In this document: positions 29,941 through 39,014 of the stretch, in pieces
Numbering within the stretch: the first letter of the stretch is position 1
How the letters are laid out: each line of letters begins with the position of its first letter
NCBI GenBank assembly: GCA_021813325.1
Contig: JAKALA010000016.1
Location: 82-64,081, forward strand
Reading direction: 5' to 3'
Source: a bacterium
GTDB taxonomy: Bacteria > Verrucomicrobiota > Verrucomicrobiia > Limisphaerales > UBA11358
DNA: 64,000 nt
Notes under the pieces: generated by a model
What the model was told of the DNA's origin: nothing
Seen by the model: the letters and a program-made list of their open reading frames with translations, nothing else
Databases searched by the model: none
Program-made: the position numbers and the translations under genes

Positions 29941-30011
29941 CGCGCTCCCTCACCTTTGTCCTCCCGAAGTAAATGTTGGTATGACTACACGCACACATCA
30001 GCATGAATATA
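29941..30011. repeat. Left arm of a 71-bp inverted repeat flanking the IS core
   Basis: By hand count, 61 of 71 positions equal the reverse complement of 31046-31116. The inner 50 bp are nearly identical (...GAAGTAAATGTTGGTATGACTACACGCACACATCAGCATGAATATA). Confidence 0.8.
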
Positions 30012-31045
30012 TTAGAAACGCCACGTTTGGCAAATTAAATGAAACTATAGCCGCACGAGGCGAACCCGTTGGCGGCGTCTCGAACGGTGACGGTGGCCAG
30101 GGCGGCGGCGATGGCCGCTGGGAGTTCCTCGCCGGTGCGGGCCTCGGCGCGGCGCAAAAACCGCCTCACCTTGCTCCACATTTTTCCCATCGGGTTCGGG
30201 TCCGCCGAATAGGCTGGCAGGAAACAAACCGCAGCCCCGGTTTGCCCGATCAGGCGCGGGGTGGCTTCATTTTTGTGGGGTGCCAGATTATTCATCACCA
30301 CCAGATCGCCCGGGCGCAAGGTGGGGCAAAGCACGTCCCGGACACAGGTCTGGAACACCTCCGTGTCAGTCGCCCCGGCAATGGTCATGCAGGCGGTCGT
30401 GCCAGCGGCACGGATGGAGGACAACATGGTCCTGGTCTGCCAGTGTCCGGCGGGCGCGCAGGCAGGGACGCGCTCCCCACGCGGGGAACGCCCGCGCAAG
30501 CGGGTCAGGTTGGTTTTTGCCGCCGATTCATCAAGGAAGACGAGCCTGGCCGGATCAAGGCTGGGTTGCTGCCGCCGCCGCGTCCGCCGGGCTTGCCGGA
30601 TGTCGGGACGGTCTTGTTCGCTGGCGCGGAGTGTCTTTTTTTATGTGTCAGCCCCAGCTTGACCAGCACGTAATGGATGGCTGGAAGCGTGCAGTTCAAT
30701 CCGGTGGCCGCGCGCAGTTCCTTGAGGGTCAGGTCGGGCTTGCGGGCCAGCAAGGTCCGCAACTGCTGCCGGTGACTGGCCACGATGCGGGGTTTGCTGC
30801 CAGAACGATGGTGCTGGGGGCGGAGGTCGCCAATCCGGCGGCGCTGCTGGAGAAGTTTCTTGACCATGCCCACGGAAACCTGGAAGCGTCGGGCCACCGC
30901 CGCCCGCGTCTCCTCGCCCTGATCGTAAGTCGTCAGTATTCGTTCGCGCAAATCCACCGAAATGGTCTTCATGCCCCAACTCTGCCATACCCCGCCACAA
31001 ACGGCTACAGCTTTATTTAATTTGCTCTAAACGCGGCATTTCTAA
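30012..31045 (-). mobile_element. IS630-family insertion sequence core (TA-flanked, about 44-bp imperfect terminal inverted repeats)
   Basis: TA at 30010-30011 and at 31046-31047. Ends are TTAGAAACGCCACGTTTGGCAAATTAAATGAAACTATAGCCG and the reverse complement TTAGAAATGCCGCGTTTAGAGCAAATTAAATAAAGCTGTAGCCG (about 36 of 44 match). Encodes an IS630-type transposase. The element could instead extend to 29941..31116. Confidence 0.8.
30035..30972 (-). CDS. IS630-family transposase in two frames (orfA 30505..30972, orfB 30035..about 30630), joined by a -1 shift at an A7 run
   Basis: orfA has the HTH part (MKTISVDLRERILTTYDQGEE...). Reading -1 from CAT AAA AAA AGA (T-run 30626-30632 on the plus strand) gives HKKKTLRASEQDRPDIRQ...LVFLDESAAKTNLTRLRGRSPRGERV, then orfB. 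The expected second D and the E of the DDE triad read N (VVMNNLAPHK) and G (NPMGKMW). Confidence 0.8.
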
Positions 31046-31116
31046 TATATTCATGCTGATGTATGCGTGTAGTCAGACCCACATTTACTTCGAGAGGGCC
31101 GGAGTGAGGGAGAGCG
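31046..31116. repeat. Right arm of the 71-bp inverted repeat flanking the IS core
   Basis: Reverse complement of 29941-30011 (61 of 71 by hand count). Ends 35 bp before the ATG of the ABC-2 permease gene. Confidence 0.8.
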
Positions 31117-31150
31117 AATTCTAAAAAAACTGCTCCGCGCACTTTGTCAT

Positions 31151-32290
31151 ATGACCCGCCCTGCTTTCAATTTCGCGCGCTTCTTCGCCATCGTGCTGAA
31201 GGAATTCATCCAGATGCGGCGCGATCGCGTGACGTTTGCCATGATGGTCGGCATCCCGATGATCCAGCTCATCCTGTTCGGTTACGCCATCAACTCGAAC
31301 CCCAAGCATCTGCCCACGGCGGTTTACGCGGCGGATAACAGCCCGTTCTCGCGCGCCATCGTCTGGGCGCTGCACAACAGCAGTTATTTTGATCTCACCC
31401 GCGAGGCGCACAGCGAGGCGGAAATCCAGCGCTGGCTGGCGGAAGGAAAAATCCAATTTGCCCTGACCGTGCCGGTGGATTTCTCGCGCCAGTTGCTGCG
31501 CGGCGAAAAACCGGATTTGTTGATTGAAGCGGACGCCACCGACCCCTCGGCCGTCGGCTACGCGTCGGCCACGATTTCCGCGCTGGTGACTTTCGTTCTG
31601 AACCGCGACCTCACCGGACCACTGACCCGCTTGCGCGCCGGCGACACGCCGTTCCATCTGATCGCGCACCAGCATTACAATCCCGAGAGCATCACCCAAT
31701 ACAACATCGTGCCCGGCTTGATGGGCGTGATGCTGACAATGACCATGATCATCATTACCGGCCTGGCCATCACCCGCGAACGCGAACGCGGCACCATGGA
31801 AAACCTGCTTTCCACGCCGGTGCATCCCGGCGAAGTCATCATCGGCAAAATCATTCCCTACATCATGGTGGGCTACGTGCAGGTGTTCCTGATTTTGCTC
31901 GCCTCGAAATTCCTGTTCGACGTGCCGATGCTCGGCAGCGTGCCACTGTTGCTGGCGCTGGTGCTGCTGTTCATCGTGGCCAACCTCGCGGTCGGCATCA
32001 CGTTTTCGACCATTGCCAAGAACCAGTTGCAGGCGGTGCAAATGGCGTTTTTCTTCTTCCTGCCGTCGCTGCTGCTTTCGGGCTACATGTTCCCGTTTCG
32101 CGGGATGCCCGGCTGGGCGCAAGACATCGGCGAATGCCTGCCGCTCACGCATTTTTTGCGCATCGTGCGCGGCATCCTGCTGAAGGGCAACGGCCTCACG
32201 GAATGCGCGCCGGATCTGTGGCCCATTGCCTTGTTTGTGGCCGTCCTGCTCACCATCGGCATCAAGCGCTACCGGCAAACTTTGGATTAA
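31151..32290 (+). CDS. ABC-2 type transporter permease (YhhJ/YbhR-like), no adjacent ATPase gene
   Basis: N-terminal FARFFAIVLKEFIQMRRDRVTFAMM, a large extracytoplasmic loop and five C-terminal TM helices with the ABC-2 signature region. Confidence 0.85.
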   Translation: MTRPAFNFARFFAIVLKEFIQMRRDRVTFAMMVGIPMIQLILFGYAINSNPKHLPTAVYAADNSPFSRAIVWALHNSSYFDLTREAHSEAEIQRWLAEGKIQFALTVPVDFSRQLLRGEKPDLLIEADATDPSAVGYASATISALVTFVLNRDLTGPLTRLRAGDTPFHLIAHQHYNPESITQYNIVPGLMGVMLTMTMIIITGLAITRERERGTMENLLSTPVHPGEVIIGKIIPYIMVGYVQVFLILLASKFLFDVPMLGSVPLLLALVLLFIVANLAVGITFSTIAKNQLQAVQMAFFFFLPSLLLSGYMFPFRGMPGWAQDIGECLPLTHFLRIVRGILLKGNGLTECAPDLWPIALFVAVLLTIGIKRYRQTLD

Positions 32291-32348
32291 CCTGCCGCCC
32301 GCCGACGGGACAATGGCGGTTCGCTGGTCTCGCTTTGGCAATGCCCGC

Positions 32349-32936
32349 TCACGCCTTCAGCCGTTTCAACCAGTCGTTGATTTCGTCCAGATCAAACCGC
32401 GCGGCGTCCCACTCGCCGCCGATCCATGCCTGGAGATGTTCGTGTTCTTCGTGCTGGGGATCCGCCAGGGCTTCCAGCATTTGGTAATAACCGCCCAGGC
32501 CGCCGCAATCGTCCGGCGGACAGGCATTCGCCCCGGCCAGGCACACCGGATGTTTAAAATCCGCGTCCGGCGGCAAAATCTTTTCAAGGACAATTTCATG
32601 TTCCCAACTGTCGCCGAAGTCATACTCGTAAATGAACTTTTTCTTCGCGGCGGGCGCAAGATCAGCCACGGTGTAATGCTTCTCGTTCAACGTCTTCTGC
32701 TGGCCCAGGCCAAAAAACTCCGGATCCGGCGTGCCGTAATACGCCTGGCCGGCGACAAACTGGTGCAAATGCGAATCCGTCCACGGCAGCACACGCTGGA
32801 TCACCTGATGCAGCCGGTTTAATTTCAGGTCCGCCCGCACCACCACCCGCCGCCAGATGGCCGGTCGCGACCATTTCAAAGTGATTTTCAATTGATACAG
32901 CGGCACGCCGCCGCCGGTTTCGTTTAGGCGAATCAT
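32349..32936 (-). CDS. PRiA4_ORF3 (MM3350-like) family protein
   Basis: YQLKITLKWSRPAIWRRVVV, WTDSHLHQF, YEYDFGDSWEHEIVLEKI and CPPDDCGGLGGYYQMLEALADPQHEEHE are all hallmark segments of the plasmid pRiA4b ORF-3-like family. Confidence 0.85.
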   Translation of the reverse strand: MIRLNETGGGVPLYQLKITLKWSRPAIWRRVVVRADLKLNRLHQVIQRVLPWTDSHLHQFVAGQAYYGTPDPEFFGLGQQKTLNEKHYTVADLAPAAKKKFIYEYDFGDSWEHEIVLEKILPPDADFKHPVCLAGANACPPDDCGGLGGYYQMLEALADPQHEEHEHLQAWIGGEWDAARFDLDEINDWLKRLKA

Positions 32937-32958
32937 GGTTTTTATTGGGTTAAAAAGT

Positions 32959-33117
32959 TCATTTCAACGGCCAGCCGCCGCGCGTCTCGATGGATTTATC
33001 TATCCCGCCCATGAGCCGCCGGGCTTCCAACAGCGCCCGGATGATGCGGCCATATTCCTCCCGCTCGTCATAGCCGAGCGGGCGGCCGGTGCGGTCTTTG
33101 AGCCAACTTTTCACAAC
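32959..33117 (-). pseudogene. Relic 3' fragment (52 codons) of a second Type ISP/IIG-like enzyme C-terminal domain
   Basis: Minus-strand translation VVKSWLKDRTGRPLGYDEREEYGRIIRALLEARRLMGGIDKSIETRGGWPLK* aligns with the C-terminus of the 33862..37185 gene (...RWLNDR...YARIVYALSETERLMPEIDRAIGKHGGWPLK*). No upstream body exists. It begins directly after, and in frame with, the stop of the 243-aa ORF. Confidence 0.7.
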
Positions 33118-33849
33118 TTAAATTTCATTTTGCAACCCGTCCTTAAACATGGATGAGAAAACATCCCCAAAGCGCTGCCAGCCTTCATGCTCAAGATGCT
33201 CGAAATGATAGTAATCAAAAATGGGTGACCGGACCGTGTGCCCGCGTTTCTTTTCGGCAACATCTTTGATCAAGCCGCCAAAGGCTGCCATTAACGCTTC
33301 GTTTCGTTTGATGGTTTTAACCAGCCGGGTCTCGTCGCGGTCCGCCCAATAATCGCTTTCATCGCGCACAGCCACGTCCAGACCGGCCTTGCGGCAAAAA
33401 TCCAGCAAGCTGATGACCGTCTTATGGCAGCGGATGAAATGCGCCAGCCCATGTCGTCCTGCGAACTGCGTTTTACAAAACCAACTGAACTGCCAGTTGG
33501 CGCTGATTTTGGTCGGATGCCAGCGGTGCATGGAGCGTCCGTGCCGGCATTTCCACCGGCTGGGATAACAACACAAGGCGAGCATGAAAGGTTCACAGCC
33601 CGCGCCGATTTCAATCGGCAATATCCAACCGCCGTGGGCATGAATGGCCACCCAGCGCACGTCCAGCCCGCGCCCAATCTGGTGGAGCTTGTCGGTGACA
33701 TCCTGCCTTTTATGAGCGGGCAGCACTTCGCCCACGTTATCGCAGCCGAGATGCCGGGCGTAATCTCCGAGCACTTCCAATCGCGCCCGGACTTCTTCAT
33801 CCGTCCAGTCGGCTTGGGTGTCTAATTGATAATGGATGGTCAGGCCCAT
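33118..33849 (-). CDS. Hypothetical protein, Cys/His-rich, no family recognised
   Basis: 243-aa ORF with an ATG at 33849, 12 nt after the stop of the nuclease-methyltransferase gene. Protein-like composition with GC-rich third positions. Core HAHGGW...CCYPSRWKCRHGRSMHRWH...FIRCHKT. Confidence 0.65.
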   Translation of the reverse strand: MGLTIHYQLDTQADWTDEEVRARLEVLGDYARHLGCDNVGEVLPAHKRQDVTDKLHQIGRGLDVRWVAIHAHGGWILPIEIGAGCEPFMLALCCYPSRWKCRHGRSMHRWHPTKISANWQFSWFCKTQFAGRHGLAHFIRCHKTVISLLDFCRKAGLDVAVRDESDYWADRDETRLVKTIKRNEALMAAFGGLIKDVAEKKRGHTVRSPIFDYYHFEHLEHEGWQRFGDVFSSMFKDGLQNEI

Positions 33850-33861
33850 ATTGGTTTGGAT

Positions 33862-36800
33862 TTATTTCAGCGGCCAGCCGCCGTGTTTCCCGATGGCGCG
33901 GTCAATCTCCGGCATCAATCGTTCCGTCTCGGACAGGGCATAAACTATCCGCGCATAGGTGGTGATGTCTTCAAAGGTCAATTTCCGCTTGGGCTTGTTT
34001 TTTCCCCTGATCCAACGGTCGTTCAACCAGCGTTGCGCGGGCAAATAACCGCCCACCGGGAAATTCCAGACAGATTCCGGCACGTCTTCAAAATACTGCT
34101 TATCGTTGATCCAGACGCGGCTCTTGTCCCGGCCTTGGGCGGGCTGGTAACGCACCGAGTTGACTTCGTTGTCGCCGGGAATTGGGAAAACCGGCCCCTG
34201 GCCTGCGCCTTCATTGCGGGCGTGCAGGTTCACCAACTCGCCGCCGAGTTTGGCCAGCGTGCGGAACAATTCAAAATCCGCCGTCAAGGGCAGGCGGGGA
34301 AAATCCGCGCGGAGAAACTCCGCATAACGCTCGCGGTAGGCGGGACTGTGGAAGATGGCGTAGGCGTAATTGAAAATGAGTTCCGGCCCCACCTGCCGCT
34401 TGGACGGATTGCCCAAGCCCTCCGGCACGAACTTGACCGACAATTTTTGCTCAAACTCCTGGATGAACTCCGCGCTCAAGTTGGGCCGCCGCCCGTTGTC
34501 GTGGGCAAATAAATCGGCCTCGGGGAGTTTGCCGTTGGGGTAAAGGTAAAGCGGGAAAACTGTTCCAATGTCAAACGGGGAAACGATATCTTTGCAAACA
34601 AGTTCTTGAACCGCAAAGAAACCGTCAATTTGACCGCGCCTTGCCTGTCGTAGGCAGCATAAACCAAGATTGCCTTCCTGAATCATGTGGTGCATCAAAC
34701 TGCTGGCTGGCGTCCCAATGAAACCTTTCCCTCGTCCGCTATACCAAGTGTGGCGGACATCAAAAGGCCGATAAACAATCGGGTAGAACAAATGTTGCTT
34801 GGCATTTTCTCGCACATCGGCTTGAGCGCGTTCGATTGACCAGTCACGACTGTCGGAGCCAAGCTCGTATTTTCTTCTCAGTTCTTCGGTGTCACCAATT
34901 TTGAAATCAGCAACGACATTGTTAATTTCTTTTTCACTGAATTGAATAGAAACGCGATCTCTTTCAGTTTTGATTGCATTGCCCGACAATGGAAACAAAT
35001 CACGAACGCTCCACAATTTTCTGAATTCTTTTTCCAGCGACACATTTCTAGGAACAAAATAAAAACCAGGGGATTCGGGCTGAAGCTTTTGCCATTTTGT
35101 ATTGTCCGTGTAGTGATCATCCAGCCACTCATATTTGTCAGAGCGTCTTCCCCATAAATCCGCGTAACGCACCGTTGCCAGCTTCTTTTTGTCTTTGCCT
35201 CCCGGCAATTTCACAAAGAGCGCAATGGAAACACCCACGGTGATGTCGAACACATTGTCATCCTTGCCGCCGCCCGGTGTAGTTTCCTGCTTCTTGGCCG
35301 ACCCGTGGAGATTGACAATGTAGATTTCGTCGAAGGCCTCCAGCAAACATTCGCGCATCCGGCGGTGCGTTAGGCCGTCGAGATAAACATTGTTGGTGAT
35401 GTAGCCGATGATGCCGCTGCCGGTCTGCTCAATGCGCCATTGCGCCCAGCGGACAAACTTGATGAAGTCATCGTTGAGGTTGAGCTTCTTTTCATTCAGC
35501 CCGCGCTTGTAGTCCTCCAGCAAATTGAGAATCCAAGGGTTTTTATTCTGCTGGCCGAAATTGGAATACGGCGGGTTACCCAGCACCACCAAGACAGGTT
35601 TATGCTTTTTGACCTCGTAGGCGGAGTTGGCTTCGTCGCTCAGGGCGCGGAGTGGGCCAAGCTGTTCGCTGGTCTTTTCCAAATCTTCCAGCGTATTGGT
35701 GAGATAGACGTTCACGCGCTCATTGCCCTGCGGCTCGTAGCTCCATTGCTGGCGGAACAGCGGTTCCTCATCCATCGCGGCGAGGGCGAGGCCGAGCTTG
35801 AAATGCGCCACGGCGTAAGGCGCCATGAGCAGTTCAAATCCGAACAGGCGCGGCAGCAGATGCTCATGCACATAGCTGCCCCATTGCCCGGCGTTTTTCT
35901 TCTTCTGAAACTGCGCGCGGATGAAGTCAAGGACAGTGTAAAGAAACGTGGCGGTGCCGGTGGCCGGATCGAGGATGAGCACGCGATGCGATTCATCAAC
36001 AATCTCCTTGTCGCCTTCCTTGCGTTTGACGGTGATTTTAGAATGGTCGGCCAACCCGGCCTTGAGGCCGAACTTGTCTTTCAACAGCCGGTCAATGCTT
36101 TGGACGATGTAATTGACGACGGGTTCGGGCGTGTAATAGACGCCGCGCAATTCCCGCAGCTTGGGGTCGTAGGCTTGCAGGAAGGTTTCGTAGAAGTGAA
36201 CGACGGGGTCGCGGCGGCGGTTGCGTTTGCCGAAATCTTCCATAACCCGCGCCATGTCCGCATGGTCGAGCGTCTGGATCAAATCCTCGACGAAACCGGC
36301 AAAGGGTTCATCGTCCAGCGCCGCGCCGGTGATCTGCTCGAAGAACGTGCGAAGAAACGGATTGGTGCGGGGAATAAGTTTCTGCGCCTTTTCGCGGGTA
36401 AATTTAATCGTGGGGCTGGCGGCGCGGGCGCTGAACAAACCGTAGGTCAACGTCTGCGCGAACATGTCGGCAAACTCGGCGACGGCTGCCGCCTCCTTTT
36501 TCCGGTCGGCGTGCCCGGCGAGTTCGGGCAGGAGCGTGGCGGCAAAGGCCGCGCGCCAGTCGCGCAACTGTTGGGAAGCGTTGCCGGTGAGAAACGCGCC
36601 GACGATGATGCCGCGGATGTTGTGGGAAAGATTGGCCAGCCGGCGGGCCAGTTCCTCGGCCGACGCAATATCGAGCGGATCTTTGGTGAGAAAGCTGATG
36701 AGCAGATGCCGGGCGCGTTCCAGTTCATCGGGCGCAACCGGAACCACCTTGCCGCCGCCGGCGACCGTGCCGAGCCGGAAGATTTCCCGGCGTTTGCCTT

Positions 36801-37185
36801 CCACGAACCAGCGGAATTCCAGATAATCGGTCAAGAGCAGGTTGGCGAGCGACGGAAGGTAGCGCTCGAGCTGTTCGCTTTTCTCAACTTCGCCAAGTTC
36901 CACGCCCACATCCTTGGCTTCAACGTAACCGACAGAAAGCGTATCGCGTTTGCGGGAGATGACATAGTCGGGCGCACCGCAGGCGGAGCGCTTCGGCTCG
37001 TTGGTCGCGATGATTTTGGGTTCGAGCGTTTCCAGCAACGTCTGCAAGGCGGCGCGGTGCGTGTGTTCGGTGGCGTCGCCGCGCTTGAGGGCGCGTTCCA
37101 AGGTGCGGAGATAGTCAAGCAACGGCGAGGGCTTGCCACCACCGTAAGCGGGCGGTTCTTCGTGCAAAAAGTCAGGTTGTGTCAT
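33862..37185 (-). CDS. Single-polypeptide restriction-modification-type enzyme: N-terminal PD-(D/E)xK nuclease + gamma-class N6-adenine DNA methyltransferase + TRD + Type-ISP-like C-terminal domain (Type IIG/IIL-like, no helicase module)
   Basis: Nuclease motif GAPDYVISRKRDTLSVGYVEAKDVG. AdoMet motif ILDPATGTATFL. Catalytic VLGNPPYSNFGQ. C-terminal FPVGGYLPAQRWLNDR...GGWPLK. ATG at 37185; the track start at 37245 is TTG. Confidence 0.85.
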   Translation of the reverse strand: MTQPDFLHEEPPAYGGGKPSPLLDYLRTLERALKRGDATEHTHRAALQTLLETLEPKIIATNEPKRSACGAPDYVISRKRDTLSVGYVEAKDVGVELGEVEKSEQLERYLPSLANLLLTDYLEFRWFVEGKRREIFRLGTVAGGGKVVPVAPDELERARHLLISFLTKDPLDIASAEELARRLANLSHNIRGIIVGAFLTGNASQQLRDWRAAFAATLLPELAGHADRKKEAAAVAEFADMFAQTLTYGLFSARAASPTIKFTREKAQKLIPRTNPFLRTFFEQITGAALDDEPFAGFVEDLIQTLDHADMARVMEDFGKRNRRRDPVVHFYETFLQAYDPKLRELRGVYYTPEPVVNYIVQSIDRLLKDKFGLKAGLADHSKITVKRKEGDKEIVDESHRVLILDPATGTATFLYTVLDFIRAQFQKKKNAGQWGSYVHEHLLPRLFGFELLMAPYAVAHFKLGLALAAMDEEPLFRQQWSYEPQGNERVNVYLTNTLEDLEKTSEQLGPLRALSDEANSAYEVKKHKPVLVVLGNPPYSNFGQQNKNPWILNLLEDYKRGLNEKKLNLNDDFIKFVRWAQWRIEQTGSGIIGYITNNVYLDGLTHRRMRECLLEAFDEIYIVNLHGSAKKQETTPGGGKDDNVFDITVGVSIALFVKLPGGKDKKKLATVRYADLWGRRSDKYEWLDDHYTDNTKWQKLQPESPGFYFVPRNVSLEKEFRKLWSVRDLFPLSGNAIKTERDRVSIQFSEKEINNVVADFKIGDTEELRRKYELGSDSRDWSIERAQADVRENAKQHLFYPIVYRPFDVRHTWYSGRGKGFIGTPASSLMHHMIQEGNLGLCCLRQARRGQIDGFFAVQELVCKDIVSPFDIGTVFPLYLYPNGKLPEADLFAHDNGRRPNLSAEFIQEFEQKLSVKFVPEGLGNPSKRQVGPELIFNYAYAIFHSPAYRERYAEFLRADFPRLPLTADFELFRTLAKLGGELVNLHARNEGAGQGPVFPIPGDNEVNSVRYQPAQGRDKSRVWINDKQYFEDVPESVWNFPVGGYLPAQRWLNDRWIRGKNKPKRKLTFEDITTYARIVYALSETERLMPEIDRAIGKHGGWPLK

Positions 37186-37439
37186 GTCCCGGTTTAATCG
37201 TGTGCCCGCCAGTTGTCCAAAATGGGCAGCAGCTGCATGGCTCAAGCGAGTGTGGGCCTAAAAAACGGCATCGTCAATGGGGGTTGCTCTCCCATTGGGC
37301 CGGATTATCCGTCGTCGGCGCCCCCCCGTTTTCAGGAGCCACCGGCTAACTTTGGATTGACAAATGGCGGGAAACCGCTCCCGCCATTGGCCGCGCCGCG
37401 CTTGCAAAATCAGGCGTTTTGGGCTTTCCTTGGGCCAAG

Positions 37440-39014
37440 ATGTTTCGACTCTGTGGCCTGCTGGTAATCATTGGTAGCTTGCTGACCGCCGCGGTTGGTT
37501 TGGGCGCGGAGTCCGCCGAGGTGAACCTTGCTTATGTGGCCCATCGCGCCTTGGAACGCGCCAAACACCCCTTCCACTCTCCGCGCGCCGATCTGCCGAA
37601 GGTGCTCAACCAGGATAATCTGAATTACGATAAATACCGCGAAATCCGCTTTCGCCGCAACCGCGCGCTGTGGGCTTCGGAATTTCTCCCGTTTCAGGTG
37701 GAATTTTTTCATCCGGGCTATTTGTATCAGGAGCCGGTGCGGATCAATGAATTCACCGCCATGCACGTTCAGCCCATCCGGTTTGTGCAGGATTTCTTTG
37801 ACTACGGCCACCTGAACATTGCCAGCCAGATTCCGGCCAACACCGGCTACGCGGGCTTCCGCGTGTTGTATGCGCTCAACAACCCCGGGCAAATGGATGA
37901 GTTGGGCGCGTTCCTTGGCGCGAGTTATTTTCGATTGCTGGGCAAAGGCCAGCGCTACGGTCAATCGGCCCGCGGCCTGGCCATCGACAGCGGCGAGAGC
38001 GATCGCCCCGAAGAATTTCCCATCTTCACCGACTGGTGGCTGGGCAAACCCGGTTACGGCGAGAAAGACCTGCGGCTGTATGCCATTCTCGACAGCGTGA
38101 GCTGTGCGGGAGCGTATGAATTTTTCATCAAACCCGGCGAAACCACCACCGCCAGCATCCGCGCCGTGCTCTATTTCCGCGCCACCAACAACATTGCCGC
38201 CGTGAACAAAGACCGGAAACCGATCAAAACCATCGGCCTGGCACCGCTCACCAGCATGTTCTGGTTTGGCAAAGACACGGAACGCAAATTTGACGATTAC
38301 CGCCCGGAAGTCCACGACAGCGACGGCCTGCTGATGCACATGGGCAACGGCGAAGTCTTGTGGCGTCCGCTGGACAATCCCCCCGCCATGCGCCATCAAA
38401 TCTTTCACGCGCCCGACATCAAAGGCTATGGCTTGCTGCAACGCGAACGCGACTTCGCCGCTTATCAGGACATGTTCAACCTGTATCACGAGGTGCCCAG
38501 TGTCTGGGTGGAACCCCAGGGCAACTGGGGCGATGGCGATCTGCATCTCGTGGAATTGAGCACCAGCTACGAAGGGCTGGATAACATCGTCGTGTTCTGG
38601 GATCCCAAACAAAAACCCGCGCCGCTCCAGCCGTTCCGCTTTGCCTACACCCTGCATTGGGAAGGCGGTTTGGCCGATCTGCACCGCTCCGAAAACCGGG
38701 TCATTGCCACCCGCATCGGGTCGGACACTCAATTCCCCGGCGCCCGGCAGTTCGTGCTGGATTTTGACGGCCCGACCTTTGACCAAATGGCCGACGACAG
38801 CAGCAAACCGCCCACCGCCATCGTCAGTTGCAGTCCCAACGCGCACATCGCCAACACGCTGGTTTTGCGCAATCCCTTTCTCGGCACCTGGCGCGTGATC
38901 ATCAAAATGATGCCCCAGACGGGCAATTCCAACCCGGTTGATCTGCGCTGCACCCTGCAACAAGGGACCAACGTGATCGGCGAAACCTGGACCTATCAAT
39001 GGAGCCCTCCCTGA
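37440..39014 (+). CDS. opgG: Osmoregulated periplasmic glucan biosynthesis protein G/D family
   Basis: Signal peptide MFRLCGLLVIIGSLLTAAVG. MdoG-family segments FRVLYALN, GASYFRLLGKGQRYGQSARGLAID and WVEPQGNWGDG. Confidence 0.9.
   Translation: MFRLCGLLVIIGSLLTAAVGLGAESAEVNLAYVAHRALERAKHPFHSPRADLPKVLNQDNLNYDKYREIRFRRNRALWASEFLPFQVEFFHPGYLYQEPVRINEFTAMHVQPIRFVQDFFDYGHLNIASQIPANTGYAGFRVLYALNNPGQMDELGAFLGASYFRLLGKGQRYGQSARGLAIDSGESDRPEEFPIFTDWWLGKPGYGEKDLRLYAILDSVSCAGAYEFFIKPGETTTASIRAVLYFRATNNIAAVNKDRKPIKTIGLAPLTSMFWFGKDTERKFDDYRPEVHDSDGLLMHMGNGEVLWRPLDNPPAMRHQIFHAPDIKGYGLLQRERDFAAYQDMFNLYHEVPSVWVEPQGNWGDGDLHLVELSTSYEGLDNIVVFWDPKQKPAPLQPFRFAYTLHWEGGLADLHRSENRVIATRIGSDTQFPGARQFVLDFDGPTFDQMADDSSKPPTAIVSCSPNAHIANTLVLRNPFLGTWRVIIKMMPQTGNSNPVDLRCTLQQGTNVIGETWTYQWSPP

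Follow-up and report, generated by a model that had tools for sequence, protein, structure and literature searches.

Gene content of the locus and the enzyme encoded by gene A

We analysed a stretch of 64,000 nucleotides (the window) from a genome of the Verrucomicrobiota (GenBank assembly GCA_021813325.1, contig JAKALA010000016.1, positions 82 to 64,081 of the forward strand), and in particular three neighbouring genes of its minus strand: gene A, which encodes a large restriction-modification (RM) enzyme, gene B, which encodes a protein of an unnamed family, and gene C, which encodes a PRiA4_ORF3 protein. A first-pass annotation, made from the sequence alone, had proposed that the three form a single module. 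We give roughly even odds (a probability of about 0.5) to a different reading, in which the locus consists of two independent things: a stand-alone A with B nested in its 3' end, and C as an unrelated neighbour. The pairing of RM genes with B, with the footprint of a repeated RM tail, is real and recurrent, and we found no description of it. The features of the locus are listed below (nt, nucleotides; aa, amino acids).

33862..37245, minus strand: gene A, 1127 aa counted from a TTG, 1107 aa from the ATG at 37185
34575..35115, minus strand: low-GC mosaic target-recognition segment of A (approximately residues 690-870)
33861..33896: left copy of the direct repeat D1, 36 nt, at the end of A's tail (HGGWPLK and the stop)
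33850..33861, minus strand: spacer of 12 nt from the stop of A to the ATG of B
33118..33849, minus strand: gene B, 243 aa, unnamed family
32959..33117, minus strand: relic RM tail, 52 codons and a stop, in frame with B past a single TAA
32958..32993: right copy of D1, 36 nt, at the end of the relic tail
32349..32936, minus strand: gene C, 195 aa, PRiA4_ORF3 / MM3350-like

The coordinates and translations of the open reading frames (ORFs) place the three genes, the 12-nt gap and the relic tail where they had first been annotated. A scan of positions 30000-38000 against Rfam gave no match.

The probable start of A is the ATG at 37185, which gives a protein of 1107 aa, the length of the database copy P0387 (P and L numbers are our handles for proteins and loci). 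From the N- to the C-terminus A carries a PD..EAK nuclease, an NPPY gamma-class N6-adenine methyltransferase and a Type_ISP_C target-recognition region, so that the fusion of a PD-(D/E)xK nuclease, an NPPY methyltransferase and a Type-ISP-like tail described by the first-pass annotation is recovered in both domains and motifs. The Pfam matches are Type_ISP_C (1e-82, residues 749-1111), N6_Mtase and Eco57I, the latter two above cut-offs, and the PADLOC profile REase_MTase_IIG matches end to end (5e-242). The nuclease motif GAPDYVI...GYVEAKD lies at residues ~70-100 of the 1107-aa protein and is kept across homologues; the methyltransferase motif GNPPYS is at residue 536. The family is large, with at least 7,930 proteins at E < 1e-100.

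The solved structures nearest to A are DrdV (7lo5, 7e-36), LlaBIII and LlaGI, with matches limited to the methylase and recognition part; the similarity to DrdV 7lo5 spans residues 349-836 of A. No helicase or ATPase domain was found in A by Pfam. Given this limited coverage and the lack of a helicase, we class A as a DrdV-like Type IIL/IIG enzyme and not as Type ISP. It has the methyltransferase and Type_ISP_C in common with the Type ISP enzymes LlaGI and LlaBIII, but lacks their helicase-like ATPase motor and is shorter (1107 aa, versus 1578 aa for LlaBIII and 1406 aa for LlaGI). Its domain order is that of DrdV (7lo5/7lvv) and of the MmeI family: a PD-(D/E)xK nuclease, a helical connector, a gamma-class NPPY methyltransferase and a C-terminal recognition domain.

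In characterised Type IIL/IIG relatives one polypeptide does everything: it recognises an asymmetric site, methylates a single adenine and cleaves nearby. Because these relatives act as single polypeptides, A would by analogy need no partner, and its sequence is that of an intact DrdV-like Type IIL/IIG enzyme, predicted to work alone. DrdV itself is a single chain of 1029 residues that modifies one strand, was purified and is active alone; its methylation is far slower than its cleavage (bioRxiv 10.1101/2021.01.06.425610). MmeI is likewise described as a single polypeptide modifying one strand (PMC2731913). We found no accessory gene described for DrdV or MmeI in these sources, whereas A has B and a second copy of its tail at the 3' end.

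The recognition segment of A stands out from the rest of the gene. Its GC fraction is 0.46-0.50 (a dip within window positions 34500-35500) versus ~0.58 on either side, and between 34575 and 35115 it is 80-87% identical to the homologues in L179 and L183 and 22-30% identical to those in L172, L174, L176 and L186. The methylase body is more than 90% identical across homologues. The GC dip and the uneven identities of the recognition segment suggest that it was swapped between homologues (domain swapping).

Three other assignments were considered and rejected. The match of A to the BREX protein PglX has an E-value of only 0.007, and there are no partner genes in the flanks, which a domain search identified, in agreement with the first-pass annotation, as an IS630-type relic and an ABC-2 permease, and as MdoG/OpgG and the GT2 OpgH (Pfam). 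The MADS protein MAD2 scores 18 bits in NCBIfam against a cut-off of 720, and MAD partner genes are also missing from the flanks. Finally, an RM system regulated by a controller (C) protein is not indicated: neither B nor C has a helix-turn-helix match, and the model of B is alpha+beta with long C-terminal helices.

Gene B and the RM genes that precede it

Judged by its pattern of substitution, B is a real gene under constraint: non-synonymous differences are 0.23-0.34 versus 0.62-0.78 for synonymous ones, near saturation in most pairs. A word-indexed search gave 133 matches to B, and an exhaustive search 2,155 cluster representatives at E < 1e-3. Family members nearly always begin at residue 1 and share the motifs MGLTIHY, GxGCEP, CKTQ[FY]A, DExxYWxxRD and FEHLE, with 16 invariant columns (including M1, G2, K126, T127, Q128, H142, D163, R171, D196, E217 and E220). 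In the source annotations the relatives are called 'hypothetical protein' only. The AlphaFold2 model of B (pLDDT 93.2, pTM 0.85) is an alpha+beta domain with long C-terminal helices.

The 243-aa protein had been said to belong to no recognisable family, and this held in every search: B is unmatched in Pfam, PADLOC, NCBIfam and PHROGs, a profile search of the PDB gave 0 matches, and Foldseek of B against the PDB and BFVD gave no E-value better than 0.02. When 48 members of the family were compared with Pfam at E < 5, nothing appeared except added zinc ribbons. The description of B as rich in Cys and His fits the copy in the window (8 C, 16 H) and fails for the family (medians 6 C and 7 H), in which only C125 and H142 are conserved. 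We therefore rejected a Cys/His zinc protein: the Cys and His are not conserved, and a C-terminal zinc ribbon is an addition of some relatives only. These variants (P0098, P0108) have ~290 aa. Other variants of ~390 aa (P0083, P0089 and relatives) carry a ~150-aa insertion, modelled at pLDDT 81 and with no PDB analogue, and P0291 (591 aa) has a fused DUF2958 domain, on which the literature yielded nothing useful.

To describe the neighbourhood of B, one genome per species was scanned, which gave 211 loci, 80 of which were fetched; the counts below rest on the 84 loci first gathered. A methylase or RM gene precedes B in 13 of the 84, and relics of one in 7 more, always upstream and on the same strand. 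The median gap from RM gene to B in the verrucomicrobial clade is 54 nt. The upstream genes belong to five architectures:

Architecture 1, Type_ISP_C type: the window and L001; relic in L006
Architecture 2, MmeI family: L010, L019, L029, L035 and L072; fragments in L025 and L045
Architecture 3, Eco57I and N6_Mtase, ~1,140 aa: L008 and L012
Architecture 4, Eco57I and TaqI_C: L011, L021 and L048; decayed copy in L007
Architecture 5, a 332-aa D12 Dam-like methylase: L005

Further RM remnants upstream of an intact B were found by tblastn in L009, L013 and L014. The background of methylase-like ORFs in B loci is 1.35%, against which 13 of 84 has a naive P of ~1e-10; counted as five independent events, the association has P = 5e-5, and the fixed side and strand add ~1e-3. 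A tie to SAM-dependent methyltransferases in general was rejected, since it would add one lineage only (L046/L066, with a small-molecule-type enzyme upstream) and is not significant.

Among the 84 loci, an A-like gene lies upstream only in the closest relatives of B. We then find the same arrangement in sister loci where B is 50-62% identical: all five with a readable upstream flank have a Type_ISP_C RM gene before B. The gaps are 5-10 nt in L172/173, L174/175, L176/177 and L178, each in an unrelated genomic setting; the gap of L001, with an RM gene whose tail frame is shifted, is 216 nt. Gaps of 5-12 nt, here and in the sisters, suggest that A and B are co-transcribed. The genes downstream of B are housekeeping genes, and the module therefore ends with B. 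The linkage of the 243-aa gene to the RM enzyme, as first proposed, extends to all five readable sisters and to five architectures, with B always downstream and on the same strand. In a neighbour-joining tree of B all the RM-linked copies fall in a single, mainly verrucomicrobial, clade, and the other clade is tied to mobile elements.

Several observations concern the surroundings of B and of the RM genes. Some metagenome contigs stop 100-170 nt before it (L002-L004, with B at ~150-170, and L058, with B at 108), as expected if assemblies break at a variable or repeated upstream RM gene. In two unrelated loci an MmeI-type N-terminal nuclease fragment lies directly before the Type_ISP_C RM gene (L001, 4402-4593; L186/L187, 3311-3985), as would be seen if, in L001 and L186, a gene of one RM family had taken over the site of another. 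The sister A-B locus L172 (1-12723) is in a defence island with an Eco57I-type methylase and a BsuBI/PstI nuclease, and with LmuB_C, MC3 and CTD7 domains.

B is optional for the enzyme. The three closest homologues of A on long contigs (75-80% identity) have neither B nor a remnant of it, and the nuclease and methylase motifs are equally intact in homologues of A with and without B. Conversely, B is intact beside decayed RM genes in L007, L009, L013, L014 and L025, some of which are reduced to a fragment. Since close homologues of A lack B, and B survives the decay of the RM gene, B is not an obligatory subunit of A. It is also unlikely to be a nuclease that needs the protection of the neighbouring methylase, because it is intact where the RM gene is reduced to a fragment; moreover, a single conserved family cannot fit five methylase families of differing specificity. 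B is neither a specificity subunit nor a cognate nuclease. In L186/L187 (7300-7734), a B-less homologue of A is followed after 2 nt by a 144-aa ORF with no Pfam match, which may be another accessory of A-type enzymes.

There is precedent for an accessory gene of this kind. The anticodon nuclease PrrC is encoded within the Type Ic EcoprrI locus and is functionally tied to the RM enzyme (PMC1484252). We take it as a model for B behind Type IIG genes, and also for PRiA4 between the Type III genes mod and res (see below). PrrC combines an ABC-ATPase and an RNase, and has no domain in common with B or C. In addition, prrC has been called 'always linked' to an RM locus (PMC3458546), unlike B, which in many cases persists where there is none.

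This persistence makes an autonomous function of B a serious rival explanation, albeit one we hold to be rather unlikely. B would serve in defence or anti-defence independently of the RM enzyme, and would be found beside it only because both share hot spots and mobile DNA. The copies of the larger clade, the one tied to mobile elements, are in plasmid- or element-like islands without methylases, next to an AAA ATPase, a DNA ligase, a PD-(D/E)xK nuclease or DUF932. In Planctomycetota, B lies 57-58 nt behind an AAA ATPase of ~504 aa (L017, L020, L027, L032-L034, L047, L059, L069, L073, L078, L079), in a conserved island whose other products include a WGR-domain ATP-dependent DNA ligase, the PD-(D/E)xK nuclease and several unknown proteins. 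One assembly has three copies, and the island is probably a mobile element. B adjoins DUF932 in L074, and is also found on cyanobacterial conjugative plasmids, where one copy is ~3 kb from ssb amid small ORFs; there were no matches to B in 50,697 phage records. In favour of an autonomous B, it is found intact where the RM gene is decayed or absent, and L172 is a defence island (BsuBI/PstI RM, LmuB_C, MC3, CTD7). Yet co-localisation alone predicts neither a fixed side and strand nor gaps of 5-100 nt over five RM architectures, and it does not predict the transfer of B together with the 3' end of the RM gene itself, to which we now turn.

The repeated RM tail and a proposed nested-segment model

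The first-pass annotation had noted a relic of an RM tail between B and C, and this is indeed a second RM C-terminal tail. The relic (33117..32959) encodes VVKSWLKDRTGRPLGYDEREEYGRIIRALLEARRLMGGIDKSIETRGGWPLK and a stop, thus ending in GGWPLK, and is 46% identical to the last 46 residues of the window's own A. The two copies of the 36-nt direct repeat are 83% identical, lie 903 nt apart and flank a 0.9-kb segment that contains B. A second RM tail also follows B in L172, L174/175, L176 and L178; the relic of L174/175 carries in-frame stops, and the tail has degenerated in L001 and L006. The B of L005, which now has a D12 methylase upstream, carries the last 9 residues of the tail fused to its C-terminus. 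A similar layout is found in the MmeI-linked loci L035 (1e-14) and L019 (5e-7), where B is followed by an MmeI-type C-terminal fragment. No tail duplication was found after B in the 53 other loci tested. We rejected the possibilities that the relic is an accident of the window or is tied to C, because the same tail follows B in sister loci that lack C.

The tails are of two types. All the B-linked A genes end in a type-2 tail (KRKL[TGS]FE[DE]I..YA.IV.AL.ET), whereas the relics are of type 1 (GRTLG[YF].EQ.EY.RIIWAL.ET.RLMAEID), which is also the type of the functional tails of the B-less genes in L179 and L186. The relics are 63-88% identical to these functional tails, whereas the window relic has only 45% identity to the tail of its own A; identity to the tail of L186 is 88% for L172, 79% for L178, 72% for L174 and 63% for the window. 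The body and recognition domain of A in the window resemble L179, and its last ~150 residues are nearest to the B-linked gene of L172 (78-80%).

These patterns would be most simply explained if B travelled with a type-2 tail, as a copy that replaces the final ~100-150 codons of the RM gene. On entering a resident RM gene with a type-1 tail, such a segment would have displaced the native tail downstream of B, where it would survive as the relic at 33117..32959. With homology arms provided by the conserved methylase body (left) and the tail (right), the segment might pass between resident RM genes by homologous recombination, and B would then be read from the RM promoter.

A related process has been described for RM systems, where insertion accompanied by a long duplication of the target leaves tens to hundreds of bp of target sequence directly repeated around the insert and involves no transposase or integrase (Furuta et al. 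2010, PMC2853133). The layout of tail, B and tail is similar. However, the cargo there is an RM system; here a small non-RM gene takes that role, with the 3' coding end of the RM gene itself as the duplicated target.

One could instead suppose that B is the agent of its own movement, e.g., a small recombinase or a homing-type nuclease, and that the 0.9-kb segment is a selfish cassette targeting the 3' ends of methylase and RM genes. The direct repeats of the RM tail that flank the segment would suit such a cassette, as would the origin of the order RM gene, B and RM tail in two RM families and the many invariant polar residues of B. RM genes have also been swapped in front of a stable B: in L001 the Type_ISP_C gene is preceded by MmeI_N relics, and the B of L005, now behind the D12 methylase, still has the last 9 aa of the ISP tail. 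We nonetheless regard this explanation as unlikely: B resembles no known fold of recombinases, transposases or homing nucleases, none of the 53 other loci has the tail duplication, and the repeats are diverged and are not identical att-like cores. Besides, RM-linked insertion that duplicates a long stretch of its target is known without a dedicated enzyme (PMC2853133).

A further alternative, which we find quite improbable, takes the relic as a working third gene. Its product would be a 51-62-aa mimic of the C-terminal helices of the RM enzyme, made by translational coupling or read-through after B and acting with B on the tail of the enzyme. In the window, L172, L176 and L178 the relic has an open frame; the window copy is in the frame of B past one TAA, and a possible GTG start at 33114 would give an ORF of 51 aa. 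In L172 and L176 the relic ORFs overlap the stop of B by 4 nt. Synonymous differences among relics are 0.41-0.54 versus 0.62-0.78 in B, with a dN/dS of 0.2-0.75, as if the relics were more conserved than B and hence selected. This last argument is weakened by the functional type-1 tails of B-less genes, which are as similar to the relics as the relics are to each other, so that the conservation can be explained by repeated refreshment by recombination. Synonymous divergence is similarly low over the final 48 codons of functional A genes. Furthermore, the relic has stops in L174/175, is degenerate in L001 and L006 and keeps only 9 codons in L005, and the 51-aa ORF has no match in Pfam.

What B does can only be guessed at. 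B follows methylases of varied specificity, is dispensable to them, outlives them and rides plasmids, and for these reasons we guess that it is a sequence-independent accessory, acting either on enzymes that join methylase and nuclease in one chain or on the consequences of their activity, for example by restriction alleviation or as an antitoxin-like brake. The same activity, when carried by a plasmid or an integrative element, would amount to anti-restriction. Known anti-restriction proteins such as ArdA, ArdB/KlcA, Ocr and Ral of phage lambda are small proteins encoded on plasmids and other mobile DNA, some of them near ssb in early-entry regions. The context of some copies of B is alike, but B has no Pfam or PADLOC match and an isoelectric point near neutrality. 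We rejected B as a member of the ArdA, ArdB/KlcA or Ocr families on the same grounds: no Pfam or PADLOC match, no match in fold and no acidic character.

Several points weigh against the reading of a stand-alone A with a nested, modulating B. The 16 invariant, mainly polar residues of B seem to suit an enzyme better than an inhibitor, and its neutral isoelectric point (7.7; family median 5.9) speaks against DNA mimicry. Foldseek found no analogue, either for the 243-aa B and a 394-aa long-form relative in the PDB or for the 243-aa protein among the viral models of BFVD; the best E-value was 0.01, with TM scores of at most 0.29 normalised to query length, and the weak structural matches to AdoMetDC, carbamoylase and S10-like proteins were not used as evidence. 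The B-less homologues of A that were inspected number three. Tail relics occur in only two of the five RM architectures, and no empty-site allele was recovered, so that the insertion junction is one that we infer. The frame of the relic is still open, and in L172 and L176 an ORF of 61-62 aa that overlaps the stop of B is predicted by gene callers, so that the relic might be functional and no footprint. Lastly, the larger clade of B, in planctomycetes and cyanobacteria, has no methylase neighbour.

A tentative and more specific version of the nested-segment reading can be put forward, which we consider possible but rather unlikely. B would represent a new family with a new fold that modulates single-chain methylase-nucleases, as a brake or antitoxin in cis and as anti-restriction on plasmids, and that spreads nested in the 3' ends of RM genes by using RM sequence as portable homology arms. 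The PRiA4 genes found at mod/res and thiC (next section) might represent another, unrelated case of this way of life.

Single-chain Type IIG/IIL enzymes are held to be self-contained, and they cannot separate the timing of a methylase and a nuclease gene. A conserved accessory at the 3' end in several unrelated enzyme families is a testable candidate answer to the question of how such RM genes establish safely in a new host and stabilise themselves. Were B instead anti-restriction or selfish, it would still add an unannotated family with thousands of members (Verrucomicrobiota, Planctomycetota, cyanobacteria) to the catalogue of defence and counter-defence, and it would show small genes riding on RM systems in a novel manner. 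Parasitism of RM genes via RM homology arms, as supposed in the nested-segment reading, is not known to have been described before. The RM gene with its uncharacterised nested accessory is worth experimental follow-up.

Gene C and its contexts

The assignment of the third gene to the PRiA4_ORF3/MM3350-like proteins was borne out by a full-length match to PF07929 (2e-66, 223 bits for a cut-off of 26.6, profile positions 2-173 of 173) and by a match to PDB 2i1s (3e-36), which is deposited as 'hypothetical protein'. The family is highly conserved, with more than 5,000 matches at E < 1e-20, and the motifs DFGDxWxH and CPPxDCGG are invariant.

C is independent of A and B. It is absent from all 84 B loci first gathered and from the five later sister loci, and none of 84 loci of close PRiA4 relatives has A, B or a Type_ISP_C relic. 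Comparison of B and C showed no homology. The first-pass annotation had proposed a single composite defence system, co-transcribed from A, B and C, with the small proteins as specificity, regulatory or abortive-infection partners. The common strand and the short distances (12 nt from A to B, 22 nt from the relic stop to the start of C) are compatible with it, and no minus-strand terminator-like site was detected between A and B or between the other genes, in a promoter and terminator scan that is itself uninformative. Close relatives of PRiA4 do occur inside Type III RM operons. However, the absence of conserved co-occurrence makes a three-gene module extremely unlikely, and the genes that come after the tail relic in sister loci are unrelated ones (e.g., for a SEC-C protein and MlaE).

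Elsewhere the contexts of PRiA4 are varied, and two of them recur. In seven or eight loci PRiA4 lies between the Type III genes mod and res, with the start of res 7-17 nt past the PRiA4 stop; these relatives are 60-78% identical (L085 3463-9277, L088 4143-9114, L092/L093, L102, L114 and L130/L132; also L089 and L091). In some loci the Type III RM genes are decayed to fragments around an intact PRiA4. In the second context (L101, L105, L121, L123, L127/L128 and L136) the stop of PRiA4 overlaps the ATG of a C-terminal fragment of thiC (ThiC from ~438, MNIAPGYDHITS...). ThiC residues ~341-400 are encoded just before PRiA4, and there are several partial copies of thiC within one locus. At thiC, PRiA4 looks like a selfish gene that moves with pieces of a host gene.

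The PRiA4_ORF3 family has been described as a passenger ORF of unknown function in Mutator-like transposons of the ISAzba1 group (PMC3942029). In the literature we found it mentioned only as this passenger and as a plasmid marker, with no function. C is a full-length member of the family, but there is no transposase beside it in the window. We conclude that C is a promiscuous nested passenger, independent of the A-B module, and its placement 22 nt past a displaced RM tail fits this habit without making it a member of the module.

The vicinity of C to an ABC-2 permease is not synteny with L086, since the two permeases are not homologous. The permease gene is convergent, and past it, 1.4 kb from C, lies the IS630 relic. 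Its transposase (30035-30972) is in two ORFs, with an HTH (helix-turn-helix) domain in one (155 aa) and DDE_3 in the other (154 aa), as a result of either a frameshift or decay.

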